In this document: positions 1 to 15,565 of the stretch, in pieces
How the letters are laid out: each line of letters begins with the position of its first letter
Numbering within the stretch: position 1 is the first letter of the stretch
Source of the DNA: a virus
Lineage: Duplodnaviria > Heunggongvirae > Uroviricota > Caudoviricetes
Reading direction: 5' to 3' (one strand)
DNA length: 16,123 nt
Virus record (IMG/VR): IMGVR_UViG_2541047805_000004
Made by a program: the position numbers and the translations under genes
Notes under the pieces: generated by a model
The model's database searches: none
Told to the model about the DNA's origin: nothing
Seen by the model: the letters and a program-made list of their open reading frames with translations, nothing else

Positions 1-662
1 TCACTCTGCCAGATGGCGCAATGCCATCTGGTATCACTTAAAGGTATTAAAAACAACTTTTTGTCTTTTTACCTTCCCGTTTCGCTCAAGTTAGTATAAA
101 AAAGTTGAATGTGAAACGGTAAAAACAATTAATATCAACGGCTTATAATTGATTCAGTCTAAAAAATAGACTGCAAAACGCGACAAAACACAACATATCC
201 AGTCACTATGAATCAACTACTTAGATGGTATTAGTGACCTGTAACAGAGCATTAGCGCAAGGTGATTTTTGTCTTCTTGCGCTAATTTTTTGTCGTAAAA
301 TCGGTAACGTCTGGAAATCATTCAATACTCGCACTATCGGAAGTTCACCAGCCAGCCGCAGCACGTTATTGCATACAACGTGCTGCGGCATAAAACCAAT
401 GATTATTCCTTCCCGCACATGACATACCGCGACTTTATTTATCCCCAGCAGGAAATTTTTCATACAACTTCGACCCACCAACATCACAGGTAATCGTTCC
501 GCCTGTGTATTCTCGCGCCAACATCTACCACAATTTGTTTTCTTAGGATTGTAGTCACTCTTCTGGTTGTTTCACATAATAACTTGTATACTTCAGATAG
601 TATTCATAACCTCAAACTATTTAATGTATAAATTAGATCTGAAAGTTTAGGAAAGATTTTCT

Positions 663-1382
663 ATGTTGATCGTTTCTGTACTACGCTGCGGCAAGGATTT
701 TACGCCGAAACATGCACAATGGCTTCATAAACAATTTGGTTCAATGCCCTCAATCTGCTTGACTGATGCTGGAAGTATTGATGGTGTGAATACTGCACCT
801 TTGTTATTTGATTGGCCTGGTTGGTGGTCAAAAATGGAGTTATTTAACCCAAACCATCCAGTAATCGGGAATCATGACATTTTATATTTTGACATAGATG
901 TTGTCATTACTGGAAAATTGGATATTTTTACAAAAGCTAAAAATTTTACCATGCTCAGGGAGTTTAATCATCATGACCGTGTTAACTCCTCAATTATGAT
1001 GATTCCCGTTTCTGCAAAGACAAAAATATGGGAGGAATTTACTGCCAATCCTGAACAAATAATGCAAGAATGCAAAACTGAAGATAAATGGGGTGATCAA
1101 GGTTTTATCGGTAGTGTTACTAAGCCAGACTTATGGCAGGACATTATTCCAGATGCAATTAAAAGTTATAAATGCGATATAGCAACAAAATCAATGATTG
1201 GATACAATCCAGACCTGGCATCAAAATCAGCAACTGGGAAAGTACCTGACAGTGTTTCAGTTGTGTGTTTTCACGGTAGTCCACGCCCCTGGCGCACTGG
1301 TTTTAACTGGGTTCCATCTTTTTCTTTAAAAGATACGCTTTATGGCAAAGTAAAAAATCTCAAATTAAAGGTTAAAGGTTAA
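663..1382 (+). CDS. Putative glycosyltransferase, GT8 family-like (LgtC/RfaJ-like retaining glycosyltransferase); low-GC moron
   Basis: 239-aa ORF with ATG at 663 preceded by AGGAAAG about 8 nt upstream. The translation has, in the canonical GT8 order, an N-terminal hydrophobic strand (MLIVSVL), a DxD motif in hydrophobic context (ILYFDIDVVI, cf. LgtC VLYLDIDVLV), NSSIMMIPV...KIW (cf. NAGVLLINLKKW), GDQGFIGSV (cf. QDQDILN) and CFHGSPRPW (cf. HYCGPAKPW). The region is AT-rich relative to the lambda-like flanks. Function is inferred from motifs only. Confidence 0.5.
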   Translation: MLIVSVLRCGKDFTPKHAQWLHKQFGSMPSICLTDAGSIDGVNTAPLLFDWPGWWSKMELFNPNHPVIGNHDILYFDIDVVITGKLDIFTKAKNFTMLREFNHHDRVNSSIMMIPVSAKTKIWEEFTANPEQIMQECKTEDKWGDQGFIGSVTKPDLWQDIIPDAIKSYKCDIATKSMIGYNPDLASKSATGKVPDSVSVVCFHGSPRPWRTGFNWVPSFSLKDTLYGKVKNLKLKVKG

Positions 1383-1390
1383 AGGTTAAA
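1365..1390. repeat. Tandem heptamer repeat (TTAAAGG x3 plus partial unit) spanning the stop codon of the glycosyltransferase-like ORF
   Basis: Direct reading: ttaaagg ttaaagg ttaaagg ttaaa at 1365-1390. It encodes the C-terminal KLKVKG tail and contains the TAA stop at 1380-1382. Confidence 0.8.
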
Positions 1391-1395
1391 ATCAT

Positions 1396-1418
1396 AACCA
1401 CTCGCATAGCGGGTGGTT
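1396..1418. terminator. Stem-loop between convergent genes (possible bidirectional terminator) at the terminase truncation junction
   Basis: aaccactcgc ATA gcgggtggtt forms a roughly 10-bp stem (one G-U) with a 3-nt loop. It lies between the 3' ends of the + strand ORF (stop 1382) and the truncated terminase (stop 1458). The flanking T/A runs are modest. Confidence 0.35.
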
Positions 1419-1457
1419 ATCTGTCTCAGCCACGATACGCCTGAAACTGGCTTTAAG

Positions 1458-2048
1458 TCAGCAATAATAAAAGGAGTAAATCCTTCCGTTATCCTCATCA
1501 AAGGCAGCAAGTTCATCATAACCCGCCACATCCACCGACTTTTCACGGTAGTTTTTTGCCGCTTTACCGCCCAGGCACCAGAAGCCACGCCCATTGGTGA
1601 AACGCTTCATGGTGAGCGTGTTATCCCGGTGCTTTTTGCCATACCACGGGGCCAGCGCAAGCAGCGAAGGAATATCGCGGATGGTCGGCTCAACGTGGGT
1701 TTTCATAAAGTTCTCGGCATCACCATCCGTCGGCAACCAGATAAGGGTGTTGCGCTGCTTATGCTCTATGAAGTAGGCATAAACACCCAGCAGCATTTTG
1801 GAATAACCAACACGGGCAGACTTCACCACATTCACCTCGCGGACGTAGTCACTGCCCATCGCATTCATGATGGCCCGCTGAAAGGGCAGTGTTTCCCAGC
1901 GCCCTTCCTGGTATGCGGATTCTTTCGGGAGATAATAATTGGCATCCGCCCATTCAACGGCGGTCTGTGGCTCCGGCCTGAACAGTGAGCGAAGCCCGGC
2001 GCGGACAAAATGCCGCAGCCTGTTAACCTGACTGTTCGATATATTCAC
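1458..2048 (-). pseudogene. A: Terminase large subunit (lambda gpA-like), N-terminal fragment only; truncated
   Basis: The translation MNISNSQVNRLRHFVRAGLRSLF...KSVDVAGYDELAAFD matches my recollection of the lambda gpA N-terminus for about 183 residues, then diverges (EDNGRIYSFYYC-stop). Start is GTG at 2048, overlapping the Nu1 3' end as in lambda. The homology breakpoint is near 1495. Full-length gpA is about 640 aa, so the ATPase/nuclease regions are missing. Confidence 0.85.
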
Positions 2049-2568
2049 TCAGCAACCCCGGTATCAGTTCATCCAGCGCGGCTGCTTTGTTCATGGCTTT
2101 GATGATATCCCGTTTCAGGAAATCAACATGTCGGTTTTCCAGTTCCGGAAAACGCCGCTGCACCGACAGGGGGATCCCGTCGAGAATACTGGCAATTTCA
2201 CCTGCGATCCGCGACAGCACGAAAGTACAGAATGCGGTTTCCACCACTTCAGCGGAGTCTCTGGCATTTTTCAGCTCCTGTGCGTCGGCCTGTGCACGCG
2301 TAAGTCGATGGCGTTCGTACTCAATAGTCCCTGGCTGGAGATCTGCCTCGCTGGCCTGCCGCAGTTCTTCAACCTCCCGGCGCAGCTTTTCGTTCTCAAT
2401 TTCAGCATCCCTTTCGGCATACCATTTTATAACGGCGGCAGAGTCATAAAGCACCTCATTACCCTTGCCACCGCCTCGCAGAACGGGCATTCCCTGTTCC
2501 TGCCAGTTCTGAATGGTACGGATACTCGCACCGAAAATGTCAGCCAGCTGCTTTTTGTTGACTTCCAT
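2023..2568 (-). CDS. nohD: Terminase small subunit (lambda Nu1-like)
   Basis: 181-aa ORF MEVNKKQLADIFGASIRTIQNWQEQGMPVLRGGGKGNEVLYDSAAVIKWYAERDAEIENEKLRREVEELRQ..., which I recognise as the lambda Nu1 sequence (winged-HTH N-terminus). ATG at 2568; it sits immediately downstream of cos, as in lambda. Confidence 0.9.
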   Translation of the reverse strand: MEVNKKQLADIFGASIRTIQNWQEQGMPVLRGGGKGNEVLYDSAAVIKWYAERDAEIENEKLRREVEELRQASEADLQPGTIEYERHRLTRAQADAQELKNARDSAEVVETAFCTFVLSRIAGEIASILDGIPLSVQRRFPELENRHVDFLKRDIIKAMNKAAALDELIPGLLSEYIEQSG

Positions 2569-2574
2569 TGTTCA

Positions 2575-2800
2575 TTCCACGGACAAAAACAGAGAAAGGA
2601 AACGACAAAGGCCCAAAAGTTCGTTTTCAGCACCTGTCGTTTCCTTTCTTTTCAGGGGGTATTTTAAATAAAAACATTAAGTTACGACGAAGAAGAACGG
2701 AAACGCCTTAAACCGGAAAATTTTCATAAATAGCGAAAACCCGCGAGGTCGCCGCCCCGTAACCTGTCGGATCGCCGGAAAGGACCCACAAAATGATAAT
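2575..2800 (-). other. cos: Lambda-type cohesive end site (cosQ-cosN-cosB)
   Basis: The reverse complement of 2746-2757 is GGGCGGCGACCT, the lambda 12-nt cohesive end, followed on the minus strand by CGCGGGTTTTCGCTATTTATGAAAATTTTCCGGTTTAAGGCG (lambda left-end/cosB sequence) leading into Nu1. On the other side, ...CGATCCGACAGGTTACG matches the lambda right end. Confidence 0.75.
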
Positions 2801-2956
2801 GATTATCATCTGCATGTCACAACGTGCATCTACGCCATCAAACCACGTCAAATAATCAATTATGACGCAGGTATCGTATTAATTGATCTGCATCAACTTA
2901 ACGTAAAAACAACTTCAGACAATACAAATCAGCGACACTGAATACGGGACAACCTC

Positions 2957-3190
2957 ATGTCAACGAAGAACAGAACCCGCAGAACAACAACCCGCAACAT
3001 CCGCTTTCCTAACCAAATGATTGAACAAATTAACATCGCTCTTGATCAAAAAGGGTCCGGGAATTTCTCAGCCTGGGTCATTGAAGCCTGCCGCCGGAGA
3101 CTGTGCTCAGAAAAAAGAGTTTCTCCTGAAGCAAACAAAGAAAAGAGTGACATTACTGAATTGCTCAGAAAACAGATCAGACCAGATTGA
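2957..3190 (+). CDS. ylcI: Small basic protein, YlcI/YnfO-like (DUF3950); possible ribbon-helix-helix DNA-binding protein
   Basis: 77-aa ORF with ATG at 2957. It has an N-terminal Arg/Thr-rich basic stretch followed by RNIRFPNQMIEQINIALDQKGSGNFSAWVIEA, a strand-helix-helix-like pattern. Its position next to cos matches the ylcI locus of DLP12 and the small right-end ORF of lambda. Confidence 0.55.
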   Translation: MSTKNRTRRTTTRNIRFPNQMIEQINIALDQKGSGNFSAWVIEACRRRLCSEKRVSPEANKEKSDITELLRKQIRPD

Positions 3191-3248
3191 AGCAATTTAG
3201 ATAATCGTGCAGACTACGCCCCCCTCATATCACATGGAAGGTTTATCT

Positions 3249-3659
3249 ATGGATCAGGTAGTCATTTTTAAACAAATATTTGATAAAGTTCGAAACGATT
3301 TAAACTATCAATGGTTTTATTCTGAGCTAAAACGTCACAATGTCTCACATTACATTTACTATTTAGCCACAGAGAATGTTCATATTGTATTAAAAAATGA
3401 TAATACAGTGTTATTAAAGGGCCTAAAAAACATTGTGTCTGTCAAATTTTCAAAGGATAGGCATCTTATAGAAACGACCTCTAATAAGCTGAAATCCAGA
3501 GAGATCACATTTCAGGAATACAGAAGAAACCTTGCTAAAGCAGGAGTTTTTCGGTGGGTTACAAATATCCACGAACAAAAAAGATATTACTATACCTTTG
3601 ATAATTCATTACTCTTTACTGAAAACATACAGAGCACATCACAAATGTTTCCACACTAA
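3249..3659 (+). CDS. ybcV: DUF1398-family protein YbcV-like
   Basis: The ORF frame is open from 3207 (GTG). In-frame ATGs are at 3234 and 3249. The 3249 start has GGAAGG about 7 nt upstream and gives a 136-aa product, the length I recall for K-12 YbcV. It is 16 bp downstream of, and co-oriented with, the ylcI-like gene. Confidence 0.6.
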
Positions 3660-3961
3660 ACCATAACGTCCGGTTTCTTCTACCCCTGCACCGGACTGGC
3701 TGACATGAAGAGCAACCCCGCGTTCAGTTGACGCGTTAATAACCCGGTGTGCATCGTTTTTGATTATTCCCGCACACTCACGCAGAAGGAATTCCCCGTC
3801 GGGCTACGGTCATGGTTAATGCGGGAATACGGCGACGATACAGCGCATGATGTGTCAGGCTTGAATACCTTTATCCGTTAAAAGGGATATCAGTTAAGTT
3901 ATCCCGTGCAGGGTATAAGCCATTATCAAGCCCCCCGTAGATAGGCTTTGTAATGACATCT

Positions 3962-4486
3962 TCAATTAATCAGCAGTTCAGGCTGTGTCACCTGCAAGAT
4001 GTATTCATGCTCGACAGTCAGGACACGCTTCTCTTTCTTCCGTTCGTTCATTAACCGACTGCCGATCGTACCTTTCAGCTTTGAGCGTGTTTCTTTGATG
4101 GCGTAGCGGTGCTGCATTTCTTCGCCAATTGCCATGCGGCGGCTCAGTTGTTCTGCCATCCAGTTGAATGCTGCGATATAGCTCTCCTTGATTGCCGCAG
4201 CAGCTTTCCCGGTGAACCCCATCACAACCATGATCCAGCCATCTTTCGTCAGGCTGTACATCGGGCGAACCTTGCCCTGCTCATCGATATAATCAGCCGA
4301 CGCAAAATTGCGTTGGCTAAACTCACGCGAGCAATCAGCCTTAACCTGCTCGATTTTCCTGAGAACATCACCGTGTCGCTTGCCGAAGTACTTGGCAATT
4401 TTTCTGGATGTGGTAACGACCTCTCCGTTTTTGGCTTGCACCATTTCTCGGAAGTCGAAGGCTGGAATAACTGAATGATTATTCAT
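3962..4486 (-). CDS. Phage regulatory protein, Rha family (antirepressor-like)
   Basis: A 174-aa product from the ATG at 4486: MNNHSVIPAFDFREMVQAKNGEVVTTSRKIAKYFGKRHGDVLRKIEQ... This N-terminal signature is typical of the Rha/ORF6N domain family. The longer 255-aa ORF in the track has an N-terminal extension with no protein-like character. Confidence 0.6.
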   Translation of the reverse strand: MNNHSVIPAFDFREMVQAKNGEVVTTSRKIAKYFGKRHGDVLRKIEQVKADCSREFSQRNFASADYIDEQGKVRPMYSLTKDGWIMVVMGFTGKAAAAIKESYIAAFNWMAEQLSRRMAIGEEMQHRYAIKETRSKLKGTIGSRLMNERKKEKRVLTVEHEYILQVTQPELLIN

Positions 4487-4630
4487 AGCGTCTTTACCTT
4501 TTAGAAAGTGAGCCTGTCTCACAGAAAAGCCGCCCGAGAGAGGTCGCCACCTATAACGGCATTTCTCAGGCTCGCTTACTGAAAGGCTCTCGTTAATATG
4601 CGCGTGAGATGCGCTGTGAAATTCAGATAT

Positions 4631-4654
4631 AAAAAGCCCCGCGAATGCGAGGCT
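4631..4654 (-). terminator. Rho-independent terminator downstream of the lysis cassette (Rz/Rz1)
   Basis: The minus strand reads GCCTCGC ATTC GCGGGGC TTTTTAT: a 7-bp GC-rich stem (one G-U), a 4-nt loop and a T5 run. It lies about 175 nt after the Rz stop and about 145 nt before the Rha-like start. Confidence 0.6.
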
Positions 4655-4828
4655 AAATCCTGGTATTTGTAATGAACTGGCTCTTATCTCAACGCAGCCC
4701 CTTACTGCGCGCCAGATGCTCAATATCAAGCATCAGCAATGAGATGTTTAATCTGGATTTACTCCAGAAGTGATCACCACCCTGTCTACAGAGCCAGATG
4801 TGAAGGATGATGAGTAAAATTATCGCTA

Positions 4829-5296
4829 TCATCGAAGGCATTGCGTCCTAATGTATTCCTGAAGCGTTCTCAGTGCTGTTTGGTCGCGGATAATTCCGTC
4901 CCGGATATCGAGAACGTTTCGTCCAGCAACTGGAGAGAGTTCGACGGTGGCATCATTGCCCATGCCGGAGGCGCTGGAGGTTTCGGCAGAGGATGGCACA
5001 GGGCATTTTCCTTTGACGAGCACCCTGCCACCATTATCAAGCTTCCGCAGAAGAGCATCATTTTCAGCTTTCGCATCAGCTAACTCCTTCGTGTATTTTG
5101 CATCGAGCGCAGCAACATCACGCTGACGCATCTGCATGTCAGTAATTGCCGCGTTCGCCAGCTTCAGTTCTCTGACATTTTTGTCGCGCTGGGCTTTGTA
5201 GGTAATGGCGTTATCACGGTAATGATTAACAGCCCATGACAGGCAGACGATGATGCAGATAACCAGAGCGGAGATAATCGCGGTTACTCTGCTCAT
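4829..5296 (-). CDS. rzpD: Spanin inner-membrane subunit (Rz, i-spanin)
   Basis: [40 protein letters not shown]..., N-terminal TM followed by a coiled-coil; Rz-like. The ATG at 5296 overlaps the endolysin stop (ATGA). The track's longer ORF starts four codons upstream. Confidence 0.85.
4870..5076 (-). CDS. rzoD: Spanin outer-membrane lipoprotein subunit (Rz1, o-spanin), embedded in the +1 frame of Rz
   Basis: 68-aa ORF wholly inside Rz: [21 protein letters not shown]... It has a lipobox (VAGC) and a proline-rich [11 protein letters not shown] segment, typical of Rz1. Confidence 0.7.
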
Positions 5297-5790
5297 TGTT
5301 TCCCCCACAAACAGACTTCACGCTCAATCTCACGGCGAGTCATCAGTCCTTTCCATTGATTACCGCCAGCGTATGTCCAGCGCCGTAGCTGATCACATGC
5401 GCCTTTGATATCACCGTGGTTTATTTTGCGAAGAAGCGTCGATGTTCTGAAATTGCCAGCACCCACGTTGTAGACGAACGAGTAAAGAGCGCCGCGCGTT
5501 GTTTCCGGTATATCAACTTTTATGTACGGGTTAATTTGTCTGGCGACCGTGGCAAGGTCTTTATTCAGGAGGGCTTTGCATTCTGCTTTGGTATACGTTT
5601 TACCGAGCATGATGTCTTTTCCTGTATGCCCGTGACATACAGTCCATACACCAACAATATCTTTGTATGGTATGTAGCTGACACCTTCCAGACCATCGTT
5701 ACCACTTGGGCCAGTGATTAACACTGATGCTATAGCAATTGCTCCGCCACCAATAGCAGCAGCAACGGCTTTTCGTAATGATGGAGGCAT
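5293..5790 (-). CDS. rrrD: SAR endolysin (T4-lysozyme-like, GH24) of the phage 21 type
   Basis: 165-aa ORF whose N-terminal Gly/Ala-rich weakly hydrophobic segment ([18 protein letters not shown]) is a signal-anchor-release domain, followed by a lysozyme domain. I recognise it as DLP12 RrrD / phage 21 R. The ATG at 5790 overlaps the holin stop. Confidence 0.9.
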
Positions 5791-6005
5791 TATTCACCTC
5801 TCGCAGCCTTGCGCTTATCTTCTTTAATCTTGAAATAAAGGTTTGTCAGGTACGTCAGCAGGCCAAATACCAGGCTACCCAGCACACCTATTGCTGCCCA
5901 CTGTGAGGGCGTGACTTTATCGAGCAGCTGTAAAAACCAGTAACCGGCACTACCTGCTGAGGTGCCATAGGCGACACCCGTTGTTAACTTATCCATGGAT
6001 TTCAT
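5790..6005 (-). CDS. essD: Pinholin (S21-family holin) with dual-start motif
   Basis: [71 protein letters not shown]. It has two closely spaced starts (ATG at 6005 and 5996, Met-Lys-Ser-Met), characteristic of an antiholin/holin pair. The RBS GAGGTGG lies upstream of 6005. The track ORF extends 15 codons further upstream. Confidence 0.85.
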
Positions 6006-6594
6006 AACCCCACCTCGCAGACAAAGCGGGTGTAAATTGAGGGAATACAACGTATCGCAAAAAAGCAGAAACGTAACAGACTCGGAGTCAGTGAATAACT
6101 CAGGTATTGAGTTATCAGCTAATATCGAGACTCAAAAAATGGAAAAACCAGCTCGACGGCGGGTTTAAGCTGTGTGACGAAGTAACCACTCTTAACAGCA
6201 TAACCAATTTTTTACGTACGTAAACCACTGAATGATATTTATGAGAATGCTACCGAGTGTTCAAAACACCACCACAAATACATAAGAAAACCTCAACAAA
6301 TAACCAATAAATAATTTCCGGCGTTATTTTTAGTTAATTTAAATTAAACCATCGAATTATAGACCCCCCCATAAATAACAGCCATTAATATAAATTAGCT
6401 AATAGGTTTATTTTTGTTCAAATAAGAGCCATAAATAGGTTTCGATAGAAAAAGTTCAGATAAAAATAGAGATCTACTTCACAAATTAAATGAGAAACTA
6501 AAACTTACATCTTGAAATAATCACATTGATTAGATGAATATTTATCGCGCAGTGACATCATTTTTTAATAATAGTTCAAAAAAAAGGGCTCACG

Positions 6595-7677
6595 ATGAAA
6601 AAATTAACAGTGGCAATTTCTGCTGTAGCTGCATCAGTACTGATGGCGATGTCTGCTCAGGCAGCTGAAATTTATAATAAAGACAGTAACAAGCTGGATC
6701 TGTACGGGAAAGTTAATGCTAAGCACTACTTCTCCTCTAATGATGCAGATGATGGTGATACTACTTATGCCCGTCTTGGCTTCAAAGGTGAAACCCAAAT
6801 CAACGATCAACTGACTGGTTTCGGTCAGTGGGAATATGAATTCAAAGGCAACCGCGCTGAATCTCAAGGTTCCTCCAAAGATAAAACCCGTCTTGCCTTC
6901 GCTGGCCTGAAATTCGGTGACTACGGCTCCATCGATTACGGCCGTAACTACGGTGTAGCATACGACATCGGTGCGTGGACTGACGTCCTGCCAGAATTCG
7001 GTGGTGACACTTGGACTCAAACAGATGTGTTCATGACTGGTCGCACCACTGGTGTTGCAACTTATCGTAACAACGACTTCTTTGGTCTGGTTGATGGTCT
7101 GAACTTTGCTGCTCAGTATCAGGGTAAAAATGACCGCACTGACGTAACTGAAGCTAATGGTGATGGTTTCGGTTTCTCCACTACTTATGAGTATGAAGGA
7201 TTCGGTGTAGGTGCAACCTATGCTAAATCTGATCGCACTAATAATCAGGTTATCTACGGTAACAACGGTCTGAATGCTTCTGGTCAAAATGCTGAAGTAT
7301 GGGCAGCTGGTCTGAAATATGATGCGAACAACATCTATCTGGCCACCACCTATTCTGAAACCCAGAACATGACTGTTTTTGGTAATAACCATATTGCCAA
7401 CAAAGCACAAAACTTCGAAGCTGTTGCACAATATCAGTTCGACTTCGGCCTGCGTCCATCCGTTGCTTACCTGCATTCTAAAGGAAAAGACTTGGGTGTT
7501 TGGGGTGATCAGGACCTGGTTGAATATGTTGATGTAGGTGCAACCTATTACTTCAACAAAAATATGTCCACTTTTGTTGACTACAAAATCAACCTGATTG
7601 ATAAGAGCGATTTCACGAAAGCATCTGGCGTTGCTACCGATGATATCGTTGCTGTAGGTATGGTTTACCAGTTCTAA
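6595..7677 (+). CDS. nmpC: OmpC/OmpF-family general porin (NmpC/OmpD-like), apparently intact
   Basis: 360-aa ORF with signal peptide [23 protein letters not shown]|AEIYNKD, porin hallmarks throughout, and a C-terminal aromatic residue (…VYQF). AAGGG RBS before the ATG at 6595. It lies between Q and the holin on the opposite strand, the position of nmpC in DLP12. Confidence 0.9.
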
Positions 7678-7687
7678 TTTGATTACT

Positions 7688-7727
7688 AAAAGATATGTTG
7701 TGGGAGGCTTTGCCTCCCCAACATATA
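7688..7727 (-). terminator. Predicted tR'-like intrinsic terminator for the short late leader transcript
   Basis: The minus strand reads ATATGTTGGGGAGGC AAA GCCTCCCACAACATAT followed by CTTTTAG: a long GC-rich stem with a T-run. Its position about 100-170 nt downstream of Q is analogous to lambda tR'. Confidence 0.5.
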
Positions 7728-7789
7728 AGTGGCTCCCTCAAGCCACTTCCTTTAGAAGCACAACCTTGCTTCTAACTATACAAACCTTC

Positions 7790-7850
7790 TGTTATATATT
7801 ACCCTTTATTTTTGGGGGCGTTTCAACGCCCCATTTTTAATAACTTTTAG
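7790..7850 (-). promoter_or_regulatory. Predicted late promoter (pR'-like) and Q-utilisation region
   Basis: Immediately downstream of the Q stop, the minus strand has TTGAAA followed 18-19 nt later by TAATAT. Assigned by position and by analogy with lambdoid late regions; the exact start and pause site cannot be fixed from sequence alone. Confidence 0.3.
7814..7838 (+). terminator. Rho-independent terminator of the porin gene
   Basis: GGGGCGTT TCAA CGCCCC followed by ATTTTT on the + strand, about 140 nt after the porin stop. It overlaps the predicted late-promoter region on the opposite strand. Confidence 0.6.
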
Positions 7851-7865
7851 TAAATAATTGGCGTA

Positions 7866-8249
7866 TTAATTAGAGTTATTAACAACGATATCCATCTCTA
7901 ACCGGATATCTAATGCCATTAACATCCCTTCAATTATGCCCTCAGCCTTCTGTAACCTTTTCCCGATATAACCATCAGAGCAGCAATGCTTACCTGCCAG
8001 TGACATGAATGTCATACCGACTACATAATAATCTACTAATAAATCGTGCAAATCGCTGTTGTTCTTTTTCAGACGGGCCATGCACCCGCAAATGATCATC
8101 GCGTCATCGTCACAACATTGCGGGCGAGATTTTACTTTTGAAGGAATTAATCCCTTAAAACCGGCGGCAATGGACGACCAGGTCACATCTTCATGATTAT
8201 TAGCCGCCCACGCTCCCCAACGCTCAAGAACCATCTGAATATCACGCAT
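7866..8249 (-). CDS. quuD: Late-gene antiterminator Q (phage 82/21-type)
   Basis: 127-aa product from the ATG at 8249: [24 protein letters not shown]...[16 protein letters not shown]... (Cys-rich zinc-binding region). I recognise it as DLP12 QuuD. The track ORF starts five codons upstream. Confidence 0.85.
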
Positions 8250-8352
8250 CAACTTACTCCACAAAAATCAGACCAGAACGCCAATTACAAGCAAAAATCA
8301 ATAAAACAGTATTAGTTGATTGTTATCTCTGACTTCATACTCCTGCTCCTGT

Positions 8353-8472
8353 CAGGGTTTTGGCGTAATTCTTCAGTATTCGGTAATCGGTCAAAACAGA
8401 ACCGGGGAAACGATATAAGCGCAGACGCCCCCAGCGGTGGCGAAGAAGTTCTGCTATATTAAACTCAAACAT
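8353..8472 (-). CDS. ylcG: Small ORF, YlcG-like
   Basis: Hand translation from the ATG at 8472 (overlapping the rusA stop): [39 protein letters not shown]-stop, 39 aa. It is below the ORF-track size cutoff. Position between rusA and Q matches ylcG in DLP12. Confidence 0.4.
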
Positions 8473-8834
8473 CATTCATTCCCCATTTCGGTGATGGTCA
8501 GTTCCAGCCTCCCACCTTTGGTAACAGGCATCTTCACAACGCGGTAATCAACGACCTGAGCATCATCCAGCCAGAAACCTGCTTTAGTGAGTGCGTCAAA
8601 AGCGGCTTTTTGCAGATTATCCAGGTCACGGCGACGGCGATCCGGCATGTGGCACTCAATGCGGATTTTCACAGGCATAGCCAGGCCGATATCCAGCATT
8701 GCGCTTTTAATGATTCGGGCGACGTTATCGCGGTATGCCTGCCCCTCTGCACTGACGTGCGTGCGCCCGCGATTATGGCGGTAATAGCGATTATTGCTCG
8801 GAGGCCAGGGTAATGTGATACTGTAGGTATTCAC
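8472..8834 (-). CDS. rusA: Holliday junction resolvase RusA
   Basis: 120-aa [45 protein letters not shown]..., recognised as RusA. GTG start at 8834 overlapping the ybcO stop. Confidence 0.9.
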
Positions 8835-9121
8835 GCCTTAATAACCCCCTCTTTCAGCCAGATAACCTGTGTTCTCGCCATACCTTCCAGCGCGCATTCT
8901 TTTGCATATGCAGCATCGACAAAATGTGTGCGGCGGTCGATTTCGTCGTGGCAGGCAGAACATGCAATGGTGGCAATCAGGTCTGGCGGTTTGATACCGG
9001 TACCGCACAATCCAGCCAGCCGGATATGTGCCAGTACAGACGTTTCAGAATTGCCATTACATACGCCAGGGATTCTTACCTGGCATTCCCGACCACGCGC
9101 TGCTTTTCTCAAATCAGCCAT
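8831..9121 (-). CDS. ybcO: YbcO-like protein (DUF1364, putative metal-binding nuclease)
   Basis: 96-aa product from the ATG at 9121 with AAGGAGG RBS: [62 protein letters not shown]... (Cys/His cluster). The track ORF uses an upstream TTG. Confidence 0.8.
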
Positions 9122-9284
9122 GATTCCTCCTTGCTGCCAGTCGCAACCATTTTTTATCAACCAGGCTAGCGGTATATCCGAGCAGTGTTGGTATTTCGGA
9201 TGGCTTCAGCTCAGGCTTACGCTTACGACGATTTGATACTCTGTAGATGTGTCCGTTCATGACACGAATAAGCGGTGTAGCCAT
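9114..9284 (-). CDS. ninE: NinE-like small protein
   Basis: Hand translation from the ATG at 9284 (TAATG overlap with the ybcN stop): [56 protein letters not shown]-stop, 56 aa. It overlaps the ybcO start by 8 nt. Below the ORF-track cutoff. Confidence 0.6.
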   Translation of the reverse strand: MATPLIRVMNGHIYRVSNRRKRKPELKPSEIPTLLGYTASLVDKKWLRLAARRNHG

Positions 9285-9739
9285 TACGCCTCCTGCTTGT
9301 CGCGGAGCAGCTGGAACTCGCAGCTCTGCGGAATAGTCAGGTGGCAGCCAATATTCACCGCCCAGGCTTCAACCTTACACAGGAAGACATACATCTCTCC
9401 GGTATCAAGATCGGAGGTATGGCGTAACGACTGGATAGTGGTGATATCACCGGTTACGACATCAACCAGGTCTTTGGTTTCATAACCGAGATATGTGTGT
9501 TTGAGAGCATCTTTTACCCAAGCTGGAGTGGCGAACGTTTTACCCCTGCTGATGAGGTATTCACTGATTTCGCTGTACCACATGTGGCTGAGTGCATTCT
9601 GGGAAAGACTGCGTTTCTCACGCCACGGTTTAAGCACCATGCGAAAGCATTTGCCCTCCTCCAGATAAGGCTGGATCTGCCGACCGATAGCGGTGAAGTT
9701 GCCGCGATGTAATTTGATGCCGTCTTGTGAGAGGTTCAC
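9284..9739 (-). CDS. ybcN: NinB-family recombination protein (YbcN-like)
   Basis: 151-aa ORF with GTG start at 9739 and GGAGGTG RBS 5 nt upstream. It contains ...[22 protein letters not shown]..., resembling the NinB core. Confidence 0.8.
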
Positions 9740-9837
9740 GCTTCACCTCCGCAGAGGTCAAACGCTAGATGCAAAGAATTGCAGGTGCATTTCTGCATCT
9801 GTGAAGGGAGAAGAGAGTTTGGATTGTATGTGCGCAT
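9736..9837 (-). CDS. ylcH: Small ORF (33 aa), possibly YlcH-like
   Basis: Hand translation from the ATG at 9837: [33 protein letters not shown]-stop. Length and position (between ybcM and ybcN) match ylcH of DLP12, but the sequence itself has no recognisable features and coding potential is uncertain. Confidence 0.25.
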
Positions 9838-9860
9838 AAACGTCCCCGTTTAGCGCAGAA

Positions 9861-9889
9861 GTCACCGGAGTTGTTCAGGCTCCGGTGAC
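9861..9889 (-). terminator. GC-rich stem-loop downstream of ybcM (possible terminator with weak U-tract)
   Basis: gtcaccggag ttgttcagg ctccggtgac: a perfect 10-bp stem with a 9-nt loop, about 65 nt after the ybcM stop. The T-run is poor on both strands. Confidence 0.3.
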
Positions 9890-9953
9890 ATAATTATGCC
9901 GTGTTGATTTCCCAAAATCAAAATCGATAGAATTGCTCCTTCTTAAAACACTT

Positions 9954-10751
9954 TTACTCTCTGGAAGCTTTTCTTATCTCTCTTGGTGTTATATTAAAAC
10001 GATTATGAAATCTTTCAGTAAAACGAGAAGGACACTTATAACCATTTTCTCTGGCAATCTCGCTTATAGGTTTTACCGTCGTTTGTATAGCAGACAACGC
10101 ATTATTTAACCTCACATCGTCCAGTATACTTTGGAAACTTACCCCCTCGCTTGCTAGACGGCGATGTAATGTAGAAACAGAAATGTAGAGATATCGAGCA
10201 ACCTTGTTTGCTGTCCATTTTGTGCCGGGTTCGGATAGCAGCAGGTTATAACAACGACTTATCAATGATTGTTTACTATATGATAAAAGTAAATGATTAA
10301 CATGATTCACTCCTAACGAAAGTAGAACGCCCATTGCTAAGTGCTCCTGAATTTTAGTTGAGAAGCCTCGGGAAACAGATGTTTTTAGTTGCTCCCAACA
10401 ATATATTAACTCAGGATTCTGAGGTAAAAAGAAACTTGTTTTGTTACGTATTTGATCAGTTACCGTATAAAGTTTTTGGAAACTCTCAATTAAATCAATG
10501 GGTAAGTAAAGCATTTCTGCAAGATAAAGCCCTGCTTCAGGATAATTCTCAATATAAAATTCATAACCACAAGGAAATAATATTATTTGATTATTATCAA
10601 CAGTTAAAGTATGCGTCTCCCAATTGATAACTTTCTTTCCCTGACGGATACGACACAAAGCTGGCATAAGAGGCTTAACCCTATGAATCTCATGATGTTT
10701 ATGCATCCGTATTTCTTCGATCTTTAAGTTAGTCTTACCTCTTGCCAGCAT
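9954..10751 (-). CDS. ybcM: AraC/XylS-family transcriptional regulator
   Basis: 265-aa ORF. The C-terminal region (...[41 protein letters not shown]...[29 protein letters not shown]) is a typical AraC-type double-HTH domain. Low GC. ATG at 10751. Confidence 0.85.
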
Positions 10752-10760
10752 ACTCTCACC

Positions 10761-11312
10761 CTACTTTATCTCATAAACTGGTGTTATCTCAGCGGTTGCG
10801 ATTTTATTAGCATTAAGCATATAACCAACTAACGCTCCGCTGGAGTTAGAATCTACAGGAATCTTTTCAGTTTTTAGAGCCCATACTTTAAACTGGTAAT
10901 GATGTGGTTTATCTCCTTTAGGAGGACATGCGCCACCAAACCCAGCATAGCCAAAATCATTTCGGCCTTGAACAGCACCAGTCGGCAGTTTTGTTCCATC
11001 ACGTCTCCCTGCATCAACGGGCAAATATGTTATTGTTGCTGGAATATTAACAACAGTCCAATGCCACCAACCACTGCCTGTAGGTGCATCTGGATCATAT
11101 ACAGTTACGGCAAAGCTTTTGGTACCTTCAGGAACACCAGACCAGGTTAATGAGGGCGATGTATTACCACCTTCACACCCAAATCCAGAAAAGACATGAG
11201 ACGTTGTAAGTTGCTCTCCTGTTTTTATTTCATTACTAGTGACCTGAAATGCTGCAGCCTGCGCAGAAAATGTTATGAATGCCAATACAGTTGAAACGAT
11301 AAGTGTTTTCAT
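10761..11312 (-). CDS. ybcL: Periplasmic PEBP/RKIP-family protein (YbcL-like)
   Basis: 183-aa ORF with signal peptide MKTLIVSTVLAFITFSAQA|AAFQ. It has the PEBP-like motif region ...VYDPDAPTGSGWWHW...HHYQFKVWAL. AAGAGG RBS. It is 10 bp upstream of ybcM in the same orientation, so the two probably form an operon. Confidence 0.85.
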   Translation of the reverse strand: MKTLIVSTVLAFITFSAQAAAFQVTSNEIKTGEQLTTSHVFSGFGCEGGNTSPSLTWSGVPEGTKSFAVTVYDPDAPTGSGWWHWTVVNIPATITYLPVDAGRRDGTKLPTGAVQGRNDFGYAGFGGACPPKGDKPHHYQFKVWALKTEKIPVDSNSSGALVGYMLNANKIATAEITPVYEIK

Positions 11313-11528
11313 AAAAACCTCTTTGTTATGACCTATCGTTATTTTATTTGATATTCCTTTATCTCATTATGCATAAAGGCGCAATGTTTATGCAAAAGCA
11401 ATCACAATTGTACCCCCAACCCAATTATTTGCCACAATATACACAAAGCACATTGATACTATCTAAAAACTCTGCTTTATTATTAGTAATACCTACGAAA
11501 GTCGGTGTTATTTTTTAACCTACCATTC

Positions 11529-11578
11529 AAAATACGTGACATACACCATTTTGCTCATAATAATTTGTCACGTATTTT
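11529..11578. repeat. 50-bp element: perfect 13-bp inverted repeats (AAAATACGTGACA / TGTCACGTATTTT) flanking a 24-bp AT-rich spacer
   Basis: Read directly from the sequence: 11529-11541 and 11566-11578 are exact reverse complements. It lies in the intergenic region between the ybcK stop (11777) and the ybcL start (11312). Confidence 0.8.
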
Positions 11579-11776
11579 CAGTATTTGAATCTGCGACCAA
11601 GAGTTCTCACCTAACAAATGATTAAGATTGTATAGCTCATTTACTACCCCAATACAGCCGTACAAAACTCGCTTGTGGGAGCAAACAAAGTAATTACCCA
11701 TTAAGTTTCGTCAAAGATAATTAATTCTGTCTTGCACTTTATCACCATAGCATAACTTAAAATCCGAGATCATTAT

Positions 11777-13303
11777 TTAGAAATAAATCTCACCATCAAC
11801 CATATATTTGAGAGCACTTATCGCCTGCTGGGCGGATATTACTTTCATTAAAGGATAGTGTTTAAAAACAATGCCATTCATAAAATAGATATCACAGGTT
11901 TTATTATCCGTATTAATTATGATTTTTTCGAATGTTTTATAGGCAAGTGTACGGCATAACTCTCGTCCATTTTTACTGGTTAAGTCAATAGCATAAAAAT
12001 CACTGAATGAATTTACACCTTTACTCTTCAAAGTTTTCAATGATACCGAAGCCCTTCGTAATTCCTTATCTAATAGTCTTATTTTCTCTGCTATAGCGGT
12101 AACTTCAGGCGCGACAGACAATGCAACGATTAAATTATTAATTTTCATCTGAAGCTCAATAATTTTTAACTCTAAAGTTTCATTAGCATCTTTCTTGTTT
12201 TCAACTGGTTGAATTTTGCTACAATTAAAAAGCAATTCATTAATGATATTATAATCAACCAAATCTCTTTTTATTGATGGCCTGTCACATCGATGTAATC
12301 TTCTCATCGGACAAACATAATAGCCATGCAAACTTCCAGATACCGCATGAACAATCATGGTATTACCACAAGCCTCACACTTCATAACTGTTCGAAGTAG
12401 ATTTATTAGCATAGGATTCTTGCTACTATTGCTAATACCAAAAGGTGCCAACCGAATTTCCTGTACAGCGTAAAACAAATCATCTGATATAACTCTGGGA
12501 TAATAGCCAGCGATTTCACTTATCCCTTTCCCTCTTGCACGATATGAAGGTACGCATATACCTATCAGAGCTTTATTCGCTAATAATTTTTCAATTACAG
12601 AAGGTCCCCATGCACTTTCTTTTCCTGAGAAATTCTTTACAGCATGATCATTTAAATACTTGGCTATTGCATTCAATGAGCGCCTTTCCATCCTGAGTTT
12701 AAAAATTAGCTCAATAGTTTTCACCCTGTCGGGGTCTGGAACAAAAGCCGTTCTTTTGTCATCTAAGGAGAGCCATCTCGGACAAGACGCCGTCATAATC
12801 GTACCTGATTCCATTGCATCCTGCCGTTTTTTCTTCCATGATAATTTAACCCGACTTGACTTTATCTCGCTTTCTTCATTTGCCCTTTGTGCTATAAGTA
12901 TGGCTTTTATTAATGAATATGGCTCATTCAAAGAGTCAATATTATAGACTGTATTGTCGCAAAGAGTTATAACATCAATACCGTGATTCAAAATCAATTT
13001 CAGACGTTCAATCGCTTCACCGACTTTTTCTCTTGAAAGTCTGTCCAGACTTTCAACTAACAATGTAGTTCCTGGCAATATATAACCATGCTCTATAGCA
13101 TCTAAAAATTCCGAAAAAGCTCCTGATTGTGCATGCTTTCCTTTGAATGCACTTAATCCTAAATCTTCATATGTTATGGTATCAAGATAATAATCACTAT
13201 TTACCTTTAACCATTCAGCAATAAGTCTTCTCTGTCGGTTTAATGAGTCACCAGACATCTGACCTGGTGATGAAAATCGCATATATGCTATGGCTTTTTT
13301 CAT
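11777..13303 (-). CDS. ybcK: Large serine recombinase (resolvase/invertase N-terminal catalytic domain plus recombinase and zinc-ribbon domains)
   Basis: 508-aa ORF. N-terminus AIAYMRFSSPGQ (catalytic Ser context) and LVESLDRLSRE (resolvase motif); a C-terminal Cys cluster (CEACGNTM...YYVCPMRRLHRCD) followed by a coiled-coil-like region. Very low GC. ATG at 13303 with AGGTG RBS. Confidence 0.85.
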   Translation of the reverse strand: MKKAIAYMRFSSPGQMSGDSLNRQRRLIAEWLKVNSDYYLDTITYEDLGLSAFKGKHAQSGAFSEFLDAIEHGYILPGTTLLVESLDRLSREKVGEAIERLKLILNHGIDVITLCDNTVYNIDSLNEPYSLIKAILIAQRANEESEIKSSRVKLSWKKKRQDAMESGTIMTASCPRWLSLDDKRTAFVPDPDRVKTIELIFKLRMERRSLNAIAKYLNDHAVKNFSGKESAWGPSVIEKLLANKALIGICVPSYRARGKGISEIAGYYPRVISDDLFYAVQEIRLAPFGISNSSKNPMLINLLRTVMKCEACGNTMIVHAVSGSLHGYYVCPMRRLHRCDRPSIKRDLVDYNIINELLFNCSKIQPVENKKDANETLELKIIELQMKINNLIVALSVAPEVTAIAEKIRLLDKELRRASVSLKTLKSKGVNSFSDFYAIDLTSKNGRELCRTLAYKTFEKIIINTDNKTCDIYFMNGIVFKHYPLMKVISAQQAISALKYMVDGEIYF

Positions 13304-13487
13304 GGTGACACCTGCTAACGTATGCTTTTATAAACCTTAGTGGTGGGATATAATTTTTGTTTAATTTTTATTTAAAAAGACAATTAAGGTCACATTATCT
13401 TGAATATACAACAATAATCGTATTGCAATTTTCTTACGCCATAATCTTGAAAGCACAAAAGAATACATAAAAAATAAAGACATTAAC

Positions 13488-13527
13488 AAAAAGCATAAAA
13501 CGAGGCTCATATAAATATAAGAGCCTC
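13488..13527 (-). terminator. Predicted rho-independent terminator of emrE
   Basis: About 30 nt after the emrE stop, the minus strand reads GAGGCTC...(12-nt AT loop)...GAGCCTC followed by GTTTTATGCTTTTTG. The stem is 7 bp with a long loop, so this is a moderate call. Confidence 0.45.
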
Positions 13528-13557
13528 CATATTTTAGTCGTTTAGAAACAAATTATT

Positions 13558-13890
13558 TTAATGTGGTGTGCTTCGTGACAATAAATTAATAACCAACACA
13601 CCGGCACAAATCAACATCATGCCTATAATGGCTGGCAGGTCCAGCCGTTGGCCGAAAAATCCCCATGACAGTAAACTAATCAGGACAATACCGACTCCTG
13701 ACCAGATAGCATAAGCAATCCCTGTAGGAATATAAGCCAGCGTCTGAGCTAATAACCAGAATGATGCACAATAACAAATAATTGTACCAACAGATGGCCA
13801 TAACCGTGTAAAACCTTCTGAAAACTTCATTAAGGTTGTACCAATGACCTCTGCAAGTATTGCACCACCAAGATAAATATAAGGGTTCAT
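13558..13890 (-). CDS. emrE: SMR-family multidrug efflux transporter EmrE
   Basis: 110-aa product from the ATG at 13890 (AGGAAAG RBS): MNPYIYLGGAILAEVIGTTLMKFSEGFTRLWPSVGTIICYCASFWLLAQTLAYIPTGIAYAIWSGVGIVLISLLSWGFFGQRLDLPAIIGMMLICAGVLVINLLSRSTPH. Four TM helices and the conserved membrane-embedded Glu (AEVIG). The track ORF includes an upstream in-frame extension. Confidence 0.9.
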   Translation of the reverse strand: MNPYIYLGGAILAEVIGTTLMKFSEGFTRLWPSVGTIICYCASFWLLAQTLAYIPTGIAYAIWSGVGIVLISLLSWGFFGQRLDLPAIIGMMLICAGVLVINLLSRSTPH

Positions 13891-13905
13891 AGCATATTCT
13901 TTCCT

Positions 13906-13940
13906 GTTCAAACTGGAGAGAATTGTACTACAGTTTGAAC
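13906..13940 (-). promoter_or_regulatory. Perfect 10-bp stem / 15-nt loop hairpin immediately upstream of the emrE RBS
   Basis: gttcaaactg (13906-13915) and cagtttgaac (13931-13940) are exact reverse complements. On the minus strand the hairpin ends about 1 nt before the emrE Shine-Dalgarno and lies 18-50 nt after the ren stop. Confidence 0.5.
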
Positions 13941-13957
13941 TCAACTCACCTGTTTCA

Positions 13958-14260
13958 TCATTGTGTTCCCATTGATGTTCTTTTATATACCCTCAATACC
14001 CGTTTCATCGCGGCACTCTGGCGACACTCCTTAAAAATCAGATTCGTGCTCACCTTTCCTTCCCGTTCTTCTCTGGTAGCGAACCGGTAATACACCGTTC
14101 GCCAGACCTTACCATCAACGACCAGGATTCCTGCCCGCGCCATTTTAGCCGCAGCCTGATTTATGCTGGTTACGGTTGCGCCTGTTACCGCGGCAACGTC
14201 CTGTGCACAGAAGCTCTTATGCGTCCCCAGGTAATGAATAATTGCCTCTTTGCCCGTCAT
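13958..14260 (-). CDS. ren: Ren protein (lambda Ren-like)
   Basis: 100-aa ORF MTGKEAIIHYLGTHKSFCAQDVAAVTGATVTSINQAAAKMARAGILVVDGKVWRTVYYRFATREEREGK..., recognised as lambda Ren. The ATG at 14260 overlaps the P stop, as in lambda. Confidence 0.85.
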   Translation of the reverse strand: MTGKEAIIHYLGTHKSFCAQDVAAVTGATVTSINQAAAKMARAGILVVDGKVWRTVYYRFATREEREGKVSTNLIFKECRQSAAMKRVLRVYKRTSMGTQ

Positions 14261-14958
14261 ACACTTGCTCCTTTCAGTCCGAACTTAGCTTTAATTTCTG
14301 CGATCTTCGCCAGAGCCTGTGCACGATTTAGAGGTCTACCGCCCATAACAGGAAGTTGTTTTACTGGTTCAGGTATCGTCTCACCACGGTTAATTCGCGC
14401 TGTCATACAGGTCAGTTCATCGGCAGCCTTGCGCCGTAATTCCGCGTCAGTCAGCGCATTGGCCCGCATGTTCTGGTACAAGTTGGTAACCAACCAGTAA
14501 TGCGCGTTCGATTTCCACGGATAAGACTCTGCATCCGGATACAGGCCACGCTTCCGGCAATACTCGTAAACCATATCAACCAGCTCGCTGACGTTTGGCA
14601 GCCCGGCGTTAACAGATGCTTCTTCCCGGCACCAGGCGACAAACTGCCCGGGTGATGGCAGGAATGGTCGATTCTGCCGACGGGCTACGCGCATTCCAGC
14701 GTTAACCTGTTCCATTGTGGTGATCCCGTTTTCCCGGAAAGCCAGAACCCACTGGCGGCGGATTTCGTTCAGTTCATTCTGGTCACGGTTAGCCAGGCTC
14801 GCCGGGAAAGTTGCCAGTAACTGGCTTAACACACCGTTGATGATCTGCGCTACCTGCTGTACCTGTGGCTTTTCGTCGTACTGTTCCGGCATGTTGTTGG
14901 CGATCCGGCGCATCTGCTCACAGTCAAAGTTAACCATCTGTGCGGCGATGTTTTTCAT
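14257..14958 (-). CDS. P: Replication protein P (DnaB helicase loader), apparently full length
   Basis: 233-aa ORF MKNIAAQMVNFDCEQMRRIANNMPEQYDEKPQVQQVAQIINGV...KAKFGLKGASV, recognised as lambda P at lambda P length. The ATG at 14958 overlaps the end of the O reading frame. Confidence 0.9.
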   Translation of the reverse strand: MKNIAAQMVNFDCEQMRRIANNMPEQYDEKPQVQQVAQIINGVLSQLLATFPASLANRDQNELNEIRRQWVLAFRENGITTMEQVNAGMRVARRQNRPFLPSPGQFVAWCREEASVNAGLPNVSELVDMVYEYCRKRGLYPDAESYPWKSNAHYWLVTNLYQNMRANALTDAELRRKAADELTCMTARINRGETIPEPVKQLPVMGGRPLNRAQALAKIAEIKAKFGLKGASV

Positions 14959-15425
14959 AGCTCCACCCCGTAAATCCAGTCAGTGTTCGTCAGGTCGAGT
15001 TTTGGTTTGCTGGCAGTCACACCAGCCTGTTGCTTGTTACGGTTGATTTCGAGTTGGGTCCACTTGTCGCGGAGTTTGGCCGGACTTAGCACGTTACCGG
15101 ACCAGAAGTTGTCCTGGCATGCCCAGCGGAACAGCACGCACATGTCGCGGTGGTTACGTCCGTCACGTTCACGCATCAGGCGGATATCGTTAGCCCACCC
15201 TGCAAAATTCGGTTTTCTGGCTGATGGCGCGATGGTCTTCACCATGTCAAACATCCACTCTGCGGCGGTCAGGTCTTCTGCTGTCCCCCACCTGCTGCCG
15301 CTCTGAATTGCAGCATCTGGTTTCTCCACAGGAAGATCGTTTTCTGGTTGGTCAGAGGATTCGCCAGAATTCTCGGACGAAAAAGGTTTTATATTGTCTT
15401 TTGTTAGTTTGTCTTTTGTGTTTAC
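14955..15425 (-). pseudogene. O: Replication initiator O, 3' fragment only (ori AT-rich region and C-terminal P-interacting domain); iterons and N-terminal domain absent
   Basis: The frame ending ...KPKLDLTNTDWIYGVEL-stop is open upstream to about 15518 with no ATG. Minus-strand sequence from about 15420 downward (ACAAAAGACAAACTAACAAAAGACAATATAAAACC...GAGAATTCTGGCGAATCCTCTGACCA...) matches my recollection of the lambda ori AT-rich region and the downstream O coding sequence. Sequence above about 15425 is unrelated. Confidence 0.7.
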
Positions 15426-15565
15426 CTGATTCGGGTAAACGCCTTTACCCCAGCTTCGGCTTCGCGGAGAATACTGATGATCTGTTCGTCGGAAAAACGC
15501 TTCTTCATGGGGATGTCCTCATGTGGCTTATGAAGACATTACTAACATCGGGGTGTACTAATCAA
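15422..15565 (-). mobile_element. Remnant of an IS3-family insertion sequence (left end plus the first ~21 codons of the transposase OrfA) at the int/O deletion junction
   Basis: The minus-strand ATG at 15508 encodes MKKRFSDEQIISILREAEAGV..., a typical N-terminus of IS3-family OrfA (HTH_Tnp_1) proteins. The frame then hits a stop after 28 codons, where the sequence becomes the lambda ori region. About 55 bp upstream of the ATG, a TGATTAG... sequence is consistent with an IS terminus. Boundaries are approximate. Confidence 0.35.

Follow-up and report, generated by a model that had tools for sequence, protein, structure and literature searches.

The question raised by this locus is what the AT-rich DNA at its 5′ edge represents. 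Positions 1–662 of a 16,123-nt stretch of viral DNA (the whole of which is called the window here) precede a glycosyltransferase-like gene, and their GC content is 37.6% against 43.4% for the window as a whole, in agreement with an earlier note made from the sequence alone. That note had recorded a hairpin at the window edge and only short ORFs, and had proposed that the segment could hold a promoter, a small RNA or the remains of a neighbouring gene. It missed the main identity of the segment, an attR junction with a sib/tI element: 1–662 is almost certainly the place where a decayed lambda/HK97-type prophage, inserted at the classical attB of lambda, joins the host chromosome on its right side (attR, P-O-B′). 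No observation speaks against this identification.

The host–phage breakpoint and the attachment site

Comparison of 1–700 with complete E. coli genomes (BLAST) gave a match to part of the query in 5418 of 5426 genomes, and a match of 100% over 1–700 in strain SW070917, where the left flank consists of ybhB, bioA, bioB, bioF, bioC and bioD. In a 100%-identical record (NZ_CM129862.1) the stop codon of ybhB (kinase inhibitor) stands directly before window base 1, and bioA, bioB, bioF, bioC and bioD lie beyond. The upstream neighbour that the earlier note had recommended looking for is ybhB. The same note had suggested that the 3′ end of a plus-strand ORF might reach position 90, which proved incorrect: the TAA of ybhB occupies the three bases before position 1, frame 1 is preceded by a stop, and the frame-2 stretch ending at 92–94 opens within ybhB, no more than 100 nt upstream and not in the frame of that gene. 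Positions 1–90 (plus strand) are, by their identity to MG1655 and by the position of the ybhB stop, E. coli chromosomal DNA directly 3′ of ybhB, that is, the bio-side B′ flank of attB-lambda.

In alignments with MG1655 and with the attP of lambda, HK97 and Chlobot, window 1–104 is identical to the unoccupied ybhB–ybhC intergenic region of K-12; from base 105 onwards the sequence tracks the phage P arm while K-12 goes on into the B arm, so the change from host to phage identity falls at 104/105, at the core. On the phage side, 87–388 has 90–96% identity (E-values down to 1e-111) with the attP regions of several phages, including HK97, HK106, 434 and lambda derivatives, and these stretches bear the deposited annotations 'attachment site core; identical to lambda att site core', 'sib retroregulation site', 'attR site' and 'O core of attP'. 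It is known that lambda attB is located between ybhC and ybhB, and that it is occupied by lambdoid prophages in E. coli B and Crooks (PMC3467070, PMC3032704). Given this location and the switch from K-12 to P-arm sequence, the segment is attR, read from the bio side; attR is written P-C-O-B′ (PCOB′) in the nomenclature of PMC4880445, which also provides the att site map. As an attR should, the site runs on its B′ side without a break into the attB flank next to bio (ybhB), and the prophage is inserted in E. coli with ybhB on its bio side and ybhC on its gal side. For annotation, this fixes the left boundary of the element, with core chromosome at 1–104 and phage DNA from about 105.

The att core occupies 91–105 and is read in the window as TTAGTATAAAAAAGT; ACTTTTTTATACTAA corresponds to lambda GCTTTTTTATACTAA in reverse complement orientation, with one base different. 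Fourteen of the 15 bases are those of lambda, the difference falling in the C core-type site, where the variant base is shared with phage PhiR70_1, and the 7-bp overlap GTATAAA (lambda TTTATAC) at 94–100 matches at all seven positions. The misc_recomb feature of the lambda RefSeq record (27724–27738) maps to window 91–105, and the 'attachment site core' feature of HK97 aligns at the same place. The window contains a 33-nt B′-O string a single time, none of 200 shuffled sequences contains it, and there is one att core only in the whole window. The 15-bp core would be the place where Int exchanges strands.

The P arm of attR (106–243) was delimited by a motif scan and by alignment with lambda, the motifs being called with the Xis-site and arm-type consensus sequences. 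Its site map follows PMC4880445. The predicted sites are, from the core outwards, the IHF site H2 at 133–145 (TATCAACGGCTTA), an X2/Fis region at about 157–177 (an A6 tract, with AAAATAGACTGC at 163–174), X1 at 185–197 (AAAACACAACATA, identical to lambda), the arm-type Int site P2 at 200–209 (CAGTCACTAT), the IHF site H1 at 211–223 (AATCAACTACTTA) and the arm-type site P1 at 231–240 (TTAGTGACCT). At the sequence level, these motifs stand in the order and orientation expected from lambda; P2, H1 and P1 are 100% identical to their lambda counterparts, H2, X1 and X2/F are recognizable, and the 'int 2' and 'int 1' features of the lambda RefSeq record fall on window 195–214 and 227–246, respectively. 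Identity along the arm is uneven, since 200–243 is 100% identical to lambda and 106–199 is mosaic (74.5% to lambda, 79.8% to HK97 and 93.6% to PhiR70_1). Retention of the motifs suggests that Xis, Fis and IHF could still bind in this core-proximal part, where lambda identity is about 75%. Together, the Int, IHF and Xis/Fis sites of the arm would build the excisive complex.

Immediately distal to the P arm lies the sib retroregulation site/tI terminator (244–299, plus strand), which consists of an 18-bp imperfect stem (244–261/276–293) and then TTTTTTGT. The hairpin at 244–293 and its TTTTTT are on the int-sense strand; the predicted free energy is −24.4 kcal/mol (z = −3.99; 0 of 200 shuffles). 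The stretch 244–299 is 96.4% identical to lambda and 100% identical to HK97, whose record labels the aligned stretch 'sib retroregulation site'. In a free phage the terminator tI ends pI transcripts, and in pL transcripts that read through it sib is an RNase III site whose cleavage destroys int mRNA. There, sib is located downstream of int and lowers int expression from pL transcripts (PMC5300877). In the prophage state sib/tI is parted from int and faces the transcripts leaving bioA–ybhB; given this orientation, its present role may be to halt host read-through into the prophage. The attR at 1–662 is already explained by textbook lambda biology, and it poses no challenge to the current understanding of lambda site-specific recombination.

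Host hairpins between ybhB and the B′ arm

The hairpin at the window edge is as the earlier note described it. The arms of the inverted repeat, CCAGATGGC/GCCATCTGG at 9–17/23–31, are 100% complementary and enclose a 5-nt loop, and folding lengthens this perfect 9-bp core by one G-U and one U-A pair to 7–33 (plus strand), 6 nt past the ybhB stop. The predicted fold of 1–90 (−26.1 kcal/mol, z = −5.65) was equalled by none of 200 shuffled sequences; the first hairpin alone (first 45 nt, computed on the identical sequence of record L015) contributes −19.4 kcal/mol. The arms GCCAGATGGC/GCCATCTGG resemble the REP motif GCC(G/T)GATG...CATC(C/A)GGC.

DNA 3′ of ybhB was gathered from 80 enterobacterial species for comparison. 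Within Escherichia, the first hairpin is retained through compensatory or wobble changes: C9T is accompanied by G31A in one relative (L017; compensatory), C17T in E. albertii yields a G-U pair, and T32C in E. whittamii converts G-U to G-C. The orthologous stem of Citrobacter sedlakii has A11G together with T29C, and at the same position most Citrobacter, Salmonella and Enterobacter have canonical REP palindromes. The edge hairpin is a conserved, REP-like structure of the host 3′-UTR, unrelated to the prophage or to the element of the glycosyltransferase-like gene. It is probably a stabilizer of the mRNA 3′ end or a weak terminator of the bioA–ybhB transcript. As an intrinsic terminator of ybhB it is unproven because it has no U-tract: the stem is present, the tail that follows is GUAUCACUUAAAGG, and a terminator scan of it gave no call. 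In E. albertii the orthologous stem is followed by GGCTTTTGCC.

A second, AT-rich host hairpin (41–75, plus strand) abuts the B′ arm and appears in both the MFE and the centroid structures. At this position the DNA of Kosakonia, Phytobacter and some Enterobacter has a hairpin that is richer in GC, directly before CCGTTTCGCTCAACTTAGTATAAAAAAGCAGGCTT, and in these genera the conserved attB stands 53–54 nt after ybhB, directly past that hairpin.

Spacer, moron cassette and other readings of the segment

Beyond sib/tI, positions 300–389 form an HK97-type spacer (93% identity to HK97) that ends in a perfect 13-bp hairpin, 355–367/377–389, with a mosaic junction directly after it; homology to HK97, HK106 and phi80 ends at 388. 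Like the hairpin at 244–293, this strong structure (z = −5.3 on the plus strand and −6.4 on the minus strand) was missed by the earlier note. After the exact sib sequence, the DNA of 31 viral contigs falls into several mosaic types, and all the HK97-type contigs among the 31 keep the 355–389 hairpin. In one relative (L102) the stem is maintained by a double compensatory change, CCGCAGC/GCTGCGG becoming CCGTGGC/GCCACGG (CA to TG with TG to CA). HK97-type relatives continue from the stem into TTTCATTTATCT. Since a T-rich tail follows the stem in HK97, L102 and L112, the hairpin resembles another terminator on the plus strand; the window has lost this tail to a replacement at the mosaic joint. 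The hairpin could be a second terminator or an RNA-processing site that backs up sib/tI, or it could be a preferred site of illegitimate recombination for swapping morons in beside att. We consider it unlikely that it is an undescribed functional element and, separately, that attR and attL would let a superinfecting lambda/HK97-type phage excise and mobilize the DLP12-like element in trans. The hairpin sits exactly at the mosaic joint that is common to HK97-, HK106- and phi80-type phages.

The cassette that follows (389–1488) is rare: of the 5426 complete E. coli genomes only 4 carry it at full length, and one phage, Chlobot, has it as well. Its first part, 390–527, is filler that includes, on the minus strand at 435–494, the last 19 codons and the stop of a Pin/Gin-type serine DNA invertase (I.DVG.S.LY..FPAGDK*). 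Its nucleotides are 83% identical to those at the 3′ end of the 'DNA invertase' gene of vB_EcoM-689R6 and likewise 83% to e14 pinE in 330 E. coli genomes; in tblastn, 13 of the 19 residues are identical (29.6 bits), a result reached by 0 of 300 shuffles. A complete Pin/Gin/Cin invertase ORF would have about 185 aa, including the catalytic N-terminal domain, and of this the last 19 codons are all that is recognizable here. The stretch 435–494 is a remnant of a tail-fibre invertase gene and no longer a gene; in this small way the suggestion that the segment contains the remains of a neighbouring gene was right.

The gene at 663–1382 (plus strand) belongs to the PmgQ/HdmD family of 'glycosyltransferase' morons (phrog_1962, E = 4e-76), and its product is 36% identical to P1 PmgQ and P7 HdmD; a literature search on the function of PmgQ/HdmD yielded nothing useful. 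It is a moron complete in itself, which was inserted between sib and the tail-fibre genes. An unrelated P2-like prophage of E. coli AH19B041 carries a diverged copy (84.7%), and as the homology upstream of the two copies starts at window 528, 528–662 (plus strand) is the gene's own upstream region. It contains conserved blocks at 561–606 and 617–631, a candidate sigma-70 promoter (TAGTCA-17-CATAAT, 552–580; a 9/12 match, not above shuffle expectation) and an AGGA Shine-Dalgarno sequence at about 649–652, 10 nt before the ATG, all on the plus strand. Positions 528–662 probably hold the moron promoter.

The proposal of a promoter for the glycosyltransferase-like gene is plausible for 528–662, on account of the conservation, the hexamers and the AGGA, and fails for the segment as a whole. 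That all 662 bp are promoter and 5′ leader of the gene at 663 is very improbable: the sigma-70-like match and the Shine-Dalgarno sequence before the ATG, as well as the conservation shared with the diverged copy in the P2-like prophage, would fit such a leader, but gene-linked conservation begins only at 528, 1–104 are host DNA, and 91–299 are att and sib sequences common to phages that lack the gene. Moreover, the promoter scan was non-discriminating, returning 8 promoter-like matches where shuffles lead one to expect 5.2 ± 2.1. There is equally little to recommend a small regulatory RNA. Three strong hairpins are present, and the record of phage DN1 has an 'antisense RNA' beside its attR; however, the ncRNA region of DN1 is not homologous to the window, the match between the two ending at 294–300, and each hairpin has a simpler reading, as a host 3′ hairpin, as sib/tI and as a terminator-like element at the mosaic joint. 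An Rfam E-value search of 1–1500 gave no match at the gathering threshold; the two best scores, for mir-15 (21.3 bits, gathering 57.3) and CssrB (19.2 bits, gathering 76), are at chance level.

The short ORFs are as featureless as the earlier note had held, none of those within 221–662 reaching a meaningful score against Pfam, PHROG or NCBIfam; the same databases gave no match for the four small ORFs in 221–546 or for the 49-aa 'nucleocapsid protein' of VR50. Both RefSeq records (PGAP 'hypothetical protein', WP_234630972.1) and phage Chlobot have an annotation for the minus-strand ORF at 221–463 (221–487 from a GTG start), whose frame is open in five relatives. Against its being a real small protein gene, which we regard as very unlikely, stand not only the lack of a Pfam, PHROG or NCBIfam match but also its position, antisense to P1 and sib, both of which are conserved for known cis functions, and with an N-terminal third that spans the mosaic junction at 389. 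Substitutions relative to HK97-type relatives are distributed over the codon positions as 3/1/4, 3/4/4 and 2/1/4, small counts without third-position bias, and they are mostly non-synonymous (5/8, 8/11 and 4/7); the curators of HK97 and lambda annotated no gene at this stretch. In other genomes the corresponding stretch is labelled 'capsid protein' or 'nucleocapsid protein'; these RefSeq annotations, like that of a 'hypothetical protein', are almost certainly spurious.

State of the prophage and related elements

The junction reading, attR at the lambda attB, raises the issue of whether the site can still be used. The window corresponds to SW070917 in three blocks: 1–1488 to 1–1488 (identical), 1490–15449 to 3933–17891 and 15446–16123 to 25669–26346 (the latter blocks 99.98–100% identical). 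It follows that the window has two extra deletions. One removed an IS1, a tail-fibre-assembly remnant and most of a terminase large-subunit pseudogene, and the other the immunity, recombination and xis region; the 1488/1490 deletion junction was not found in any complete E. coli genome. The window ends at the stop of int, of which 15574–16123 remain, aligned to nt 521–1071 of HK97 int (residues about 174–356) at 99% identity and comprising the catalytic-domain part only. No homology to xis was found in the window, which contains neither this gene nor a full-length int with its N-terminal arm-binding domain, both of which a functional excision module would need besides attL and attR. In SW070917 a precise attL (P′-O-B) adjoins ybhC at the other end of the prophage; the window itself has no attL, which would lie just beyond the window end if the arrangement is that of this near-identical relative.

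Because xis is missing and int is reduced to its catalytic-domain part, attR can no longer be used by its own prophage. The intact attR, the precise attL of the close relative and the retention of all P-arm motifs are what one would expect of a working excision module in a prophage that is inducible and excisable alone, but we give this almost no credence: there is no xis in the window, int is without arm-binding and core-binding domains, the gene for the large terminase subunit is cut short, no head and tail genes are left, and the same prophage in SW070917 carries IS1 and IS3-family insertions and pseudogenes. The attR is a relic as long as no superinfecting phage of the lambda/HK97 type provides Int and Xis; the site itself is intact, and the prophage that carries it is grounded, as PMC6379469 uses that term.

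The lambda attR shares with the window the chromosomal site (between gal and bio, ybhB–ybhC), the 7-bp overlap, 14 of 15 core bases, the K-12 B′ flank, the P2-H1-P1 block (100%) and the order H2, X2/F, X1, P2, H1, P1 and then sib/tI. The window differs from it in one C core-type base, in the core-proximal 94 bp of the P arm (74.5%; nearest PhiR70_1, 93.6%), in the DNA past sib, which is HK97-type and not the lambda b region, and in its cognate int, which is truncated, and xis, which is absent. The attP/sib region of HK97 (NC_002167) is 90% identical over 87–388, with sib at 100%, the spacer with its hairpin at 93% and the int fragment at 99%; in HK97, however, the hairpin runs on to a T-rich tail, tfa and stf, whereas homology in the window breaks at 388/389, past which the moron cassette with its invertase scrap has been inserted. 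Chlobot (PP925838) is the sole phage record that shares 389–662 (99.3%) and the PmgQ-like gene (100% at the protein level), and it has the same order int-attP-sib-spacer-moron-tfa. Unlike the window, it is a free phage with attP (P′-O-P) in which int and xis are intact, and the core-proximal part of its P arm is closer to lambda (69% identical to the window over 106–199).

The rest of the window is the gene set of DLP12, the defective prophage of E. coli K-12: emrE, ybcK, ybcL, ybcM, ybcN, ninE, ybcO, rusA, ylcG and quuD, together with an nmpC/ompC-type porin, essD, rrrD and nohD. DLP12 is located at the argU tRNA gene (PMC3032704), whereas the element in the window lies at attB-lambda and has att and int of the lambda/HK97 type.

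Attachment site and predicted prophage boundaries

The B' core-type site of this attR (window 87-91) is polymorphic among the compared loci (L014, L017, L018, L003, L036 and L042). It reads CAAGTTAG in K-12 and in the window and CAAATTAG in the BL21-derived DN1 attR; in E. whittamii, two further Escherichia genomes, Kosakonia, Phytobacter and Enterobacter it is CAACTTAG, the same sequence as lambda C'. Kosakonia, Phytobacter and some Enterobacter (loci L036, L042, L046, L056, L073 and L089; positions about 2030-2045) have a conserved lambda-type attB (TTAGTATAAAAAAGCAGGCTT, with flank CCGTTTCGCTCAA) 53-54 nt past ybhB, directly preceded by a terminator-like hairpin. Most of the Citrobacter, Salmonella and Enterobacter genomes have no lambda-type attB at that place after ybhB.

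The sequence of the sib retroregulator hairpin lies at exactly 252-294 in seven IMG/VR viral contigs (L095, L099, L105, L117, L119, L120 and L124), coordinates identical to those in the window. Therefore, the predicted prophage boundary of these contigs was likewise set at the first base past ybhB, and about 104 bases of host DNA are included in each. At the right end of the window, an int fragment (15574-16123) with 99% identity to HK97 int covers only residues about 174-356, i.e. the catalytic domain; the ORF finder includes it in a 299-aa ORF (15224-16123). Since the int stop codon is the exact end of the window, attL is placed just outside it.

RefSeq annotates short ORFs over the spacer distal to sib (3378-3527 in L009 and 3293-3391 in L008, two of the compared loci); the names given are 'nucleocapsid protein' for WP_071587484.1, of 49 aa, and 'capsid protein' for a pseudogene. 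No family support was found for the 49-aa WP_071587484.1, and both names look like annotation artefacts.

DLP12-like content and deletions

Comparison with E. coli SW070917, which carries a near-identical prophage, revealed two deletion junctions in the window. At 1488-1490, the window lacks an IS1, what remained of a tfa gene and the greater part of a terminase large-subunit pseudogene; this junction was found in no complete E. coli genome of the collection. At 15446-15449, where the joint shows a 4-bp overlap, the loss takes in xis along with the immunity and red region, and an IS3-family element is for the most part gone.

Window 1383-16123 is a DLP12-like defective prophage, located at attB-lambda whereas DLP12 itself sits at argU. 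This segment contains homologues of nohD, rzpD, rrrD and essD, an nmpC/ompC-type porin gene (6595-7677), quuD, rusA, ybcN, ybcM, ybcL, ybcK, emrE, ren and P, together with a truncated O.

The moron gene and its 3' end

The moron gene at 663-1382, labelled 'glycosyltransferase-like', gave no Pfam or NCBIfam match and is a member of phrog_1962; its product shows 36% identity to P1 PmgQ and P7 HdmD. In lambda-like and P2-like prophages alike, the neighbour of this gene is a tail-fibre assembly gene, whose 3' end lies next to it. Between 1360 and 1420, a run of tandem pentamers (aaggttaaaggttaaaggttaaa) overlaps the stop codon of the moron and is followed by a hairpin (ataaccactcgcatagcgggtggttat), which is probably a terminator shared by the moron with the tfa gene that once lay next to it. 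On the minus strand, a scan reported this hairpin as a terminator at 1412-1398 plus TTATGATTTT.
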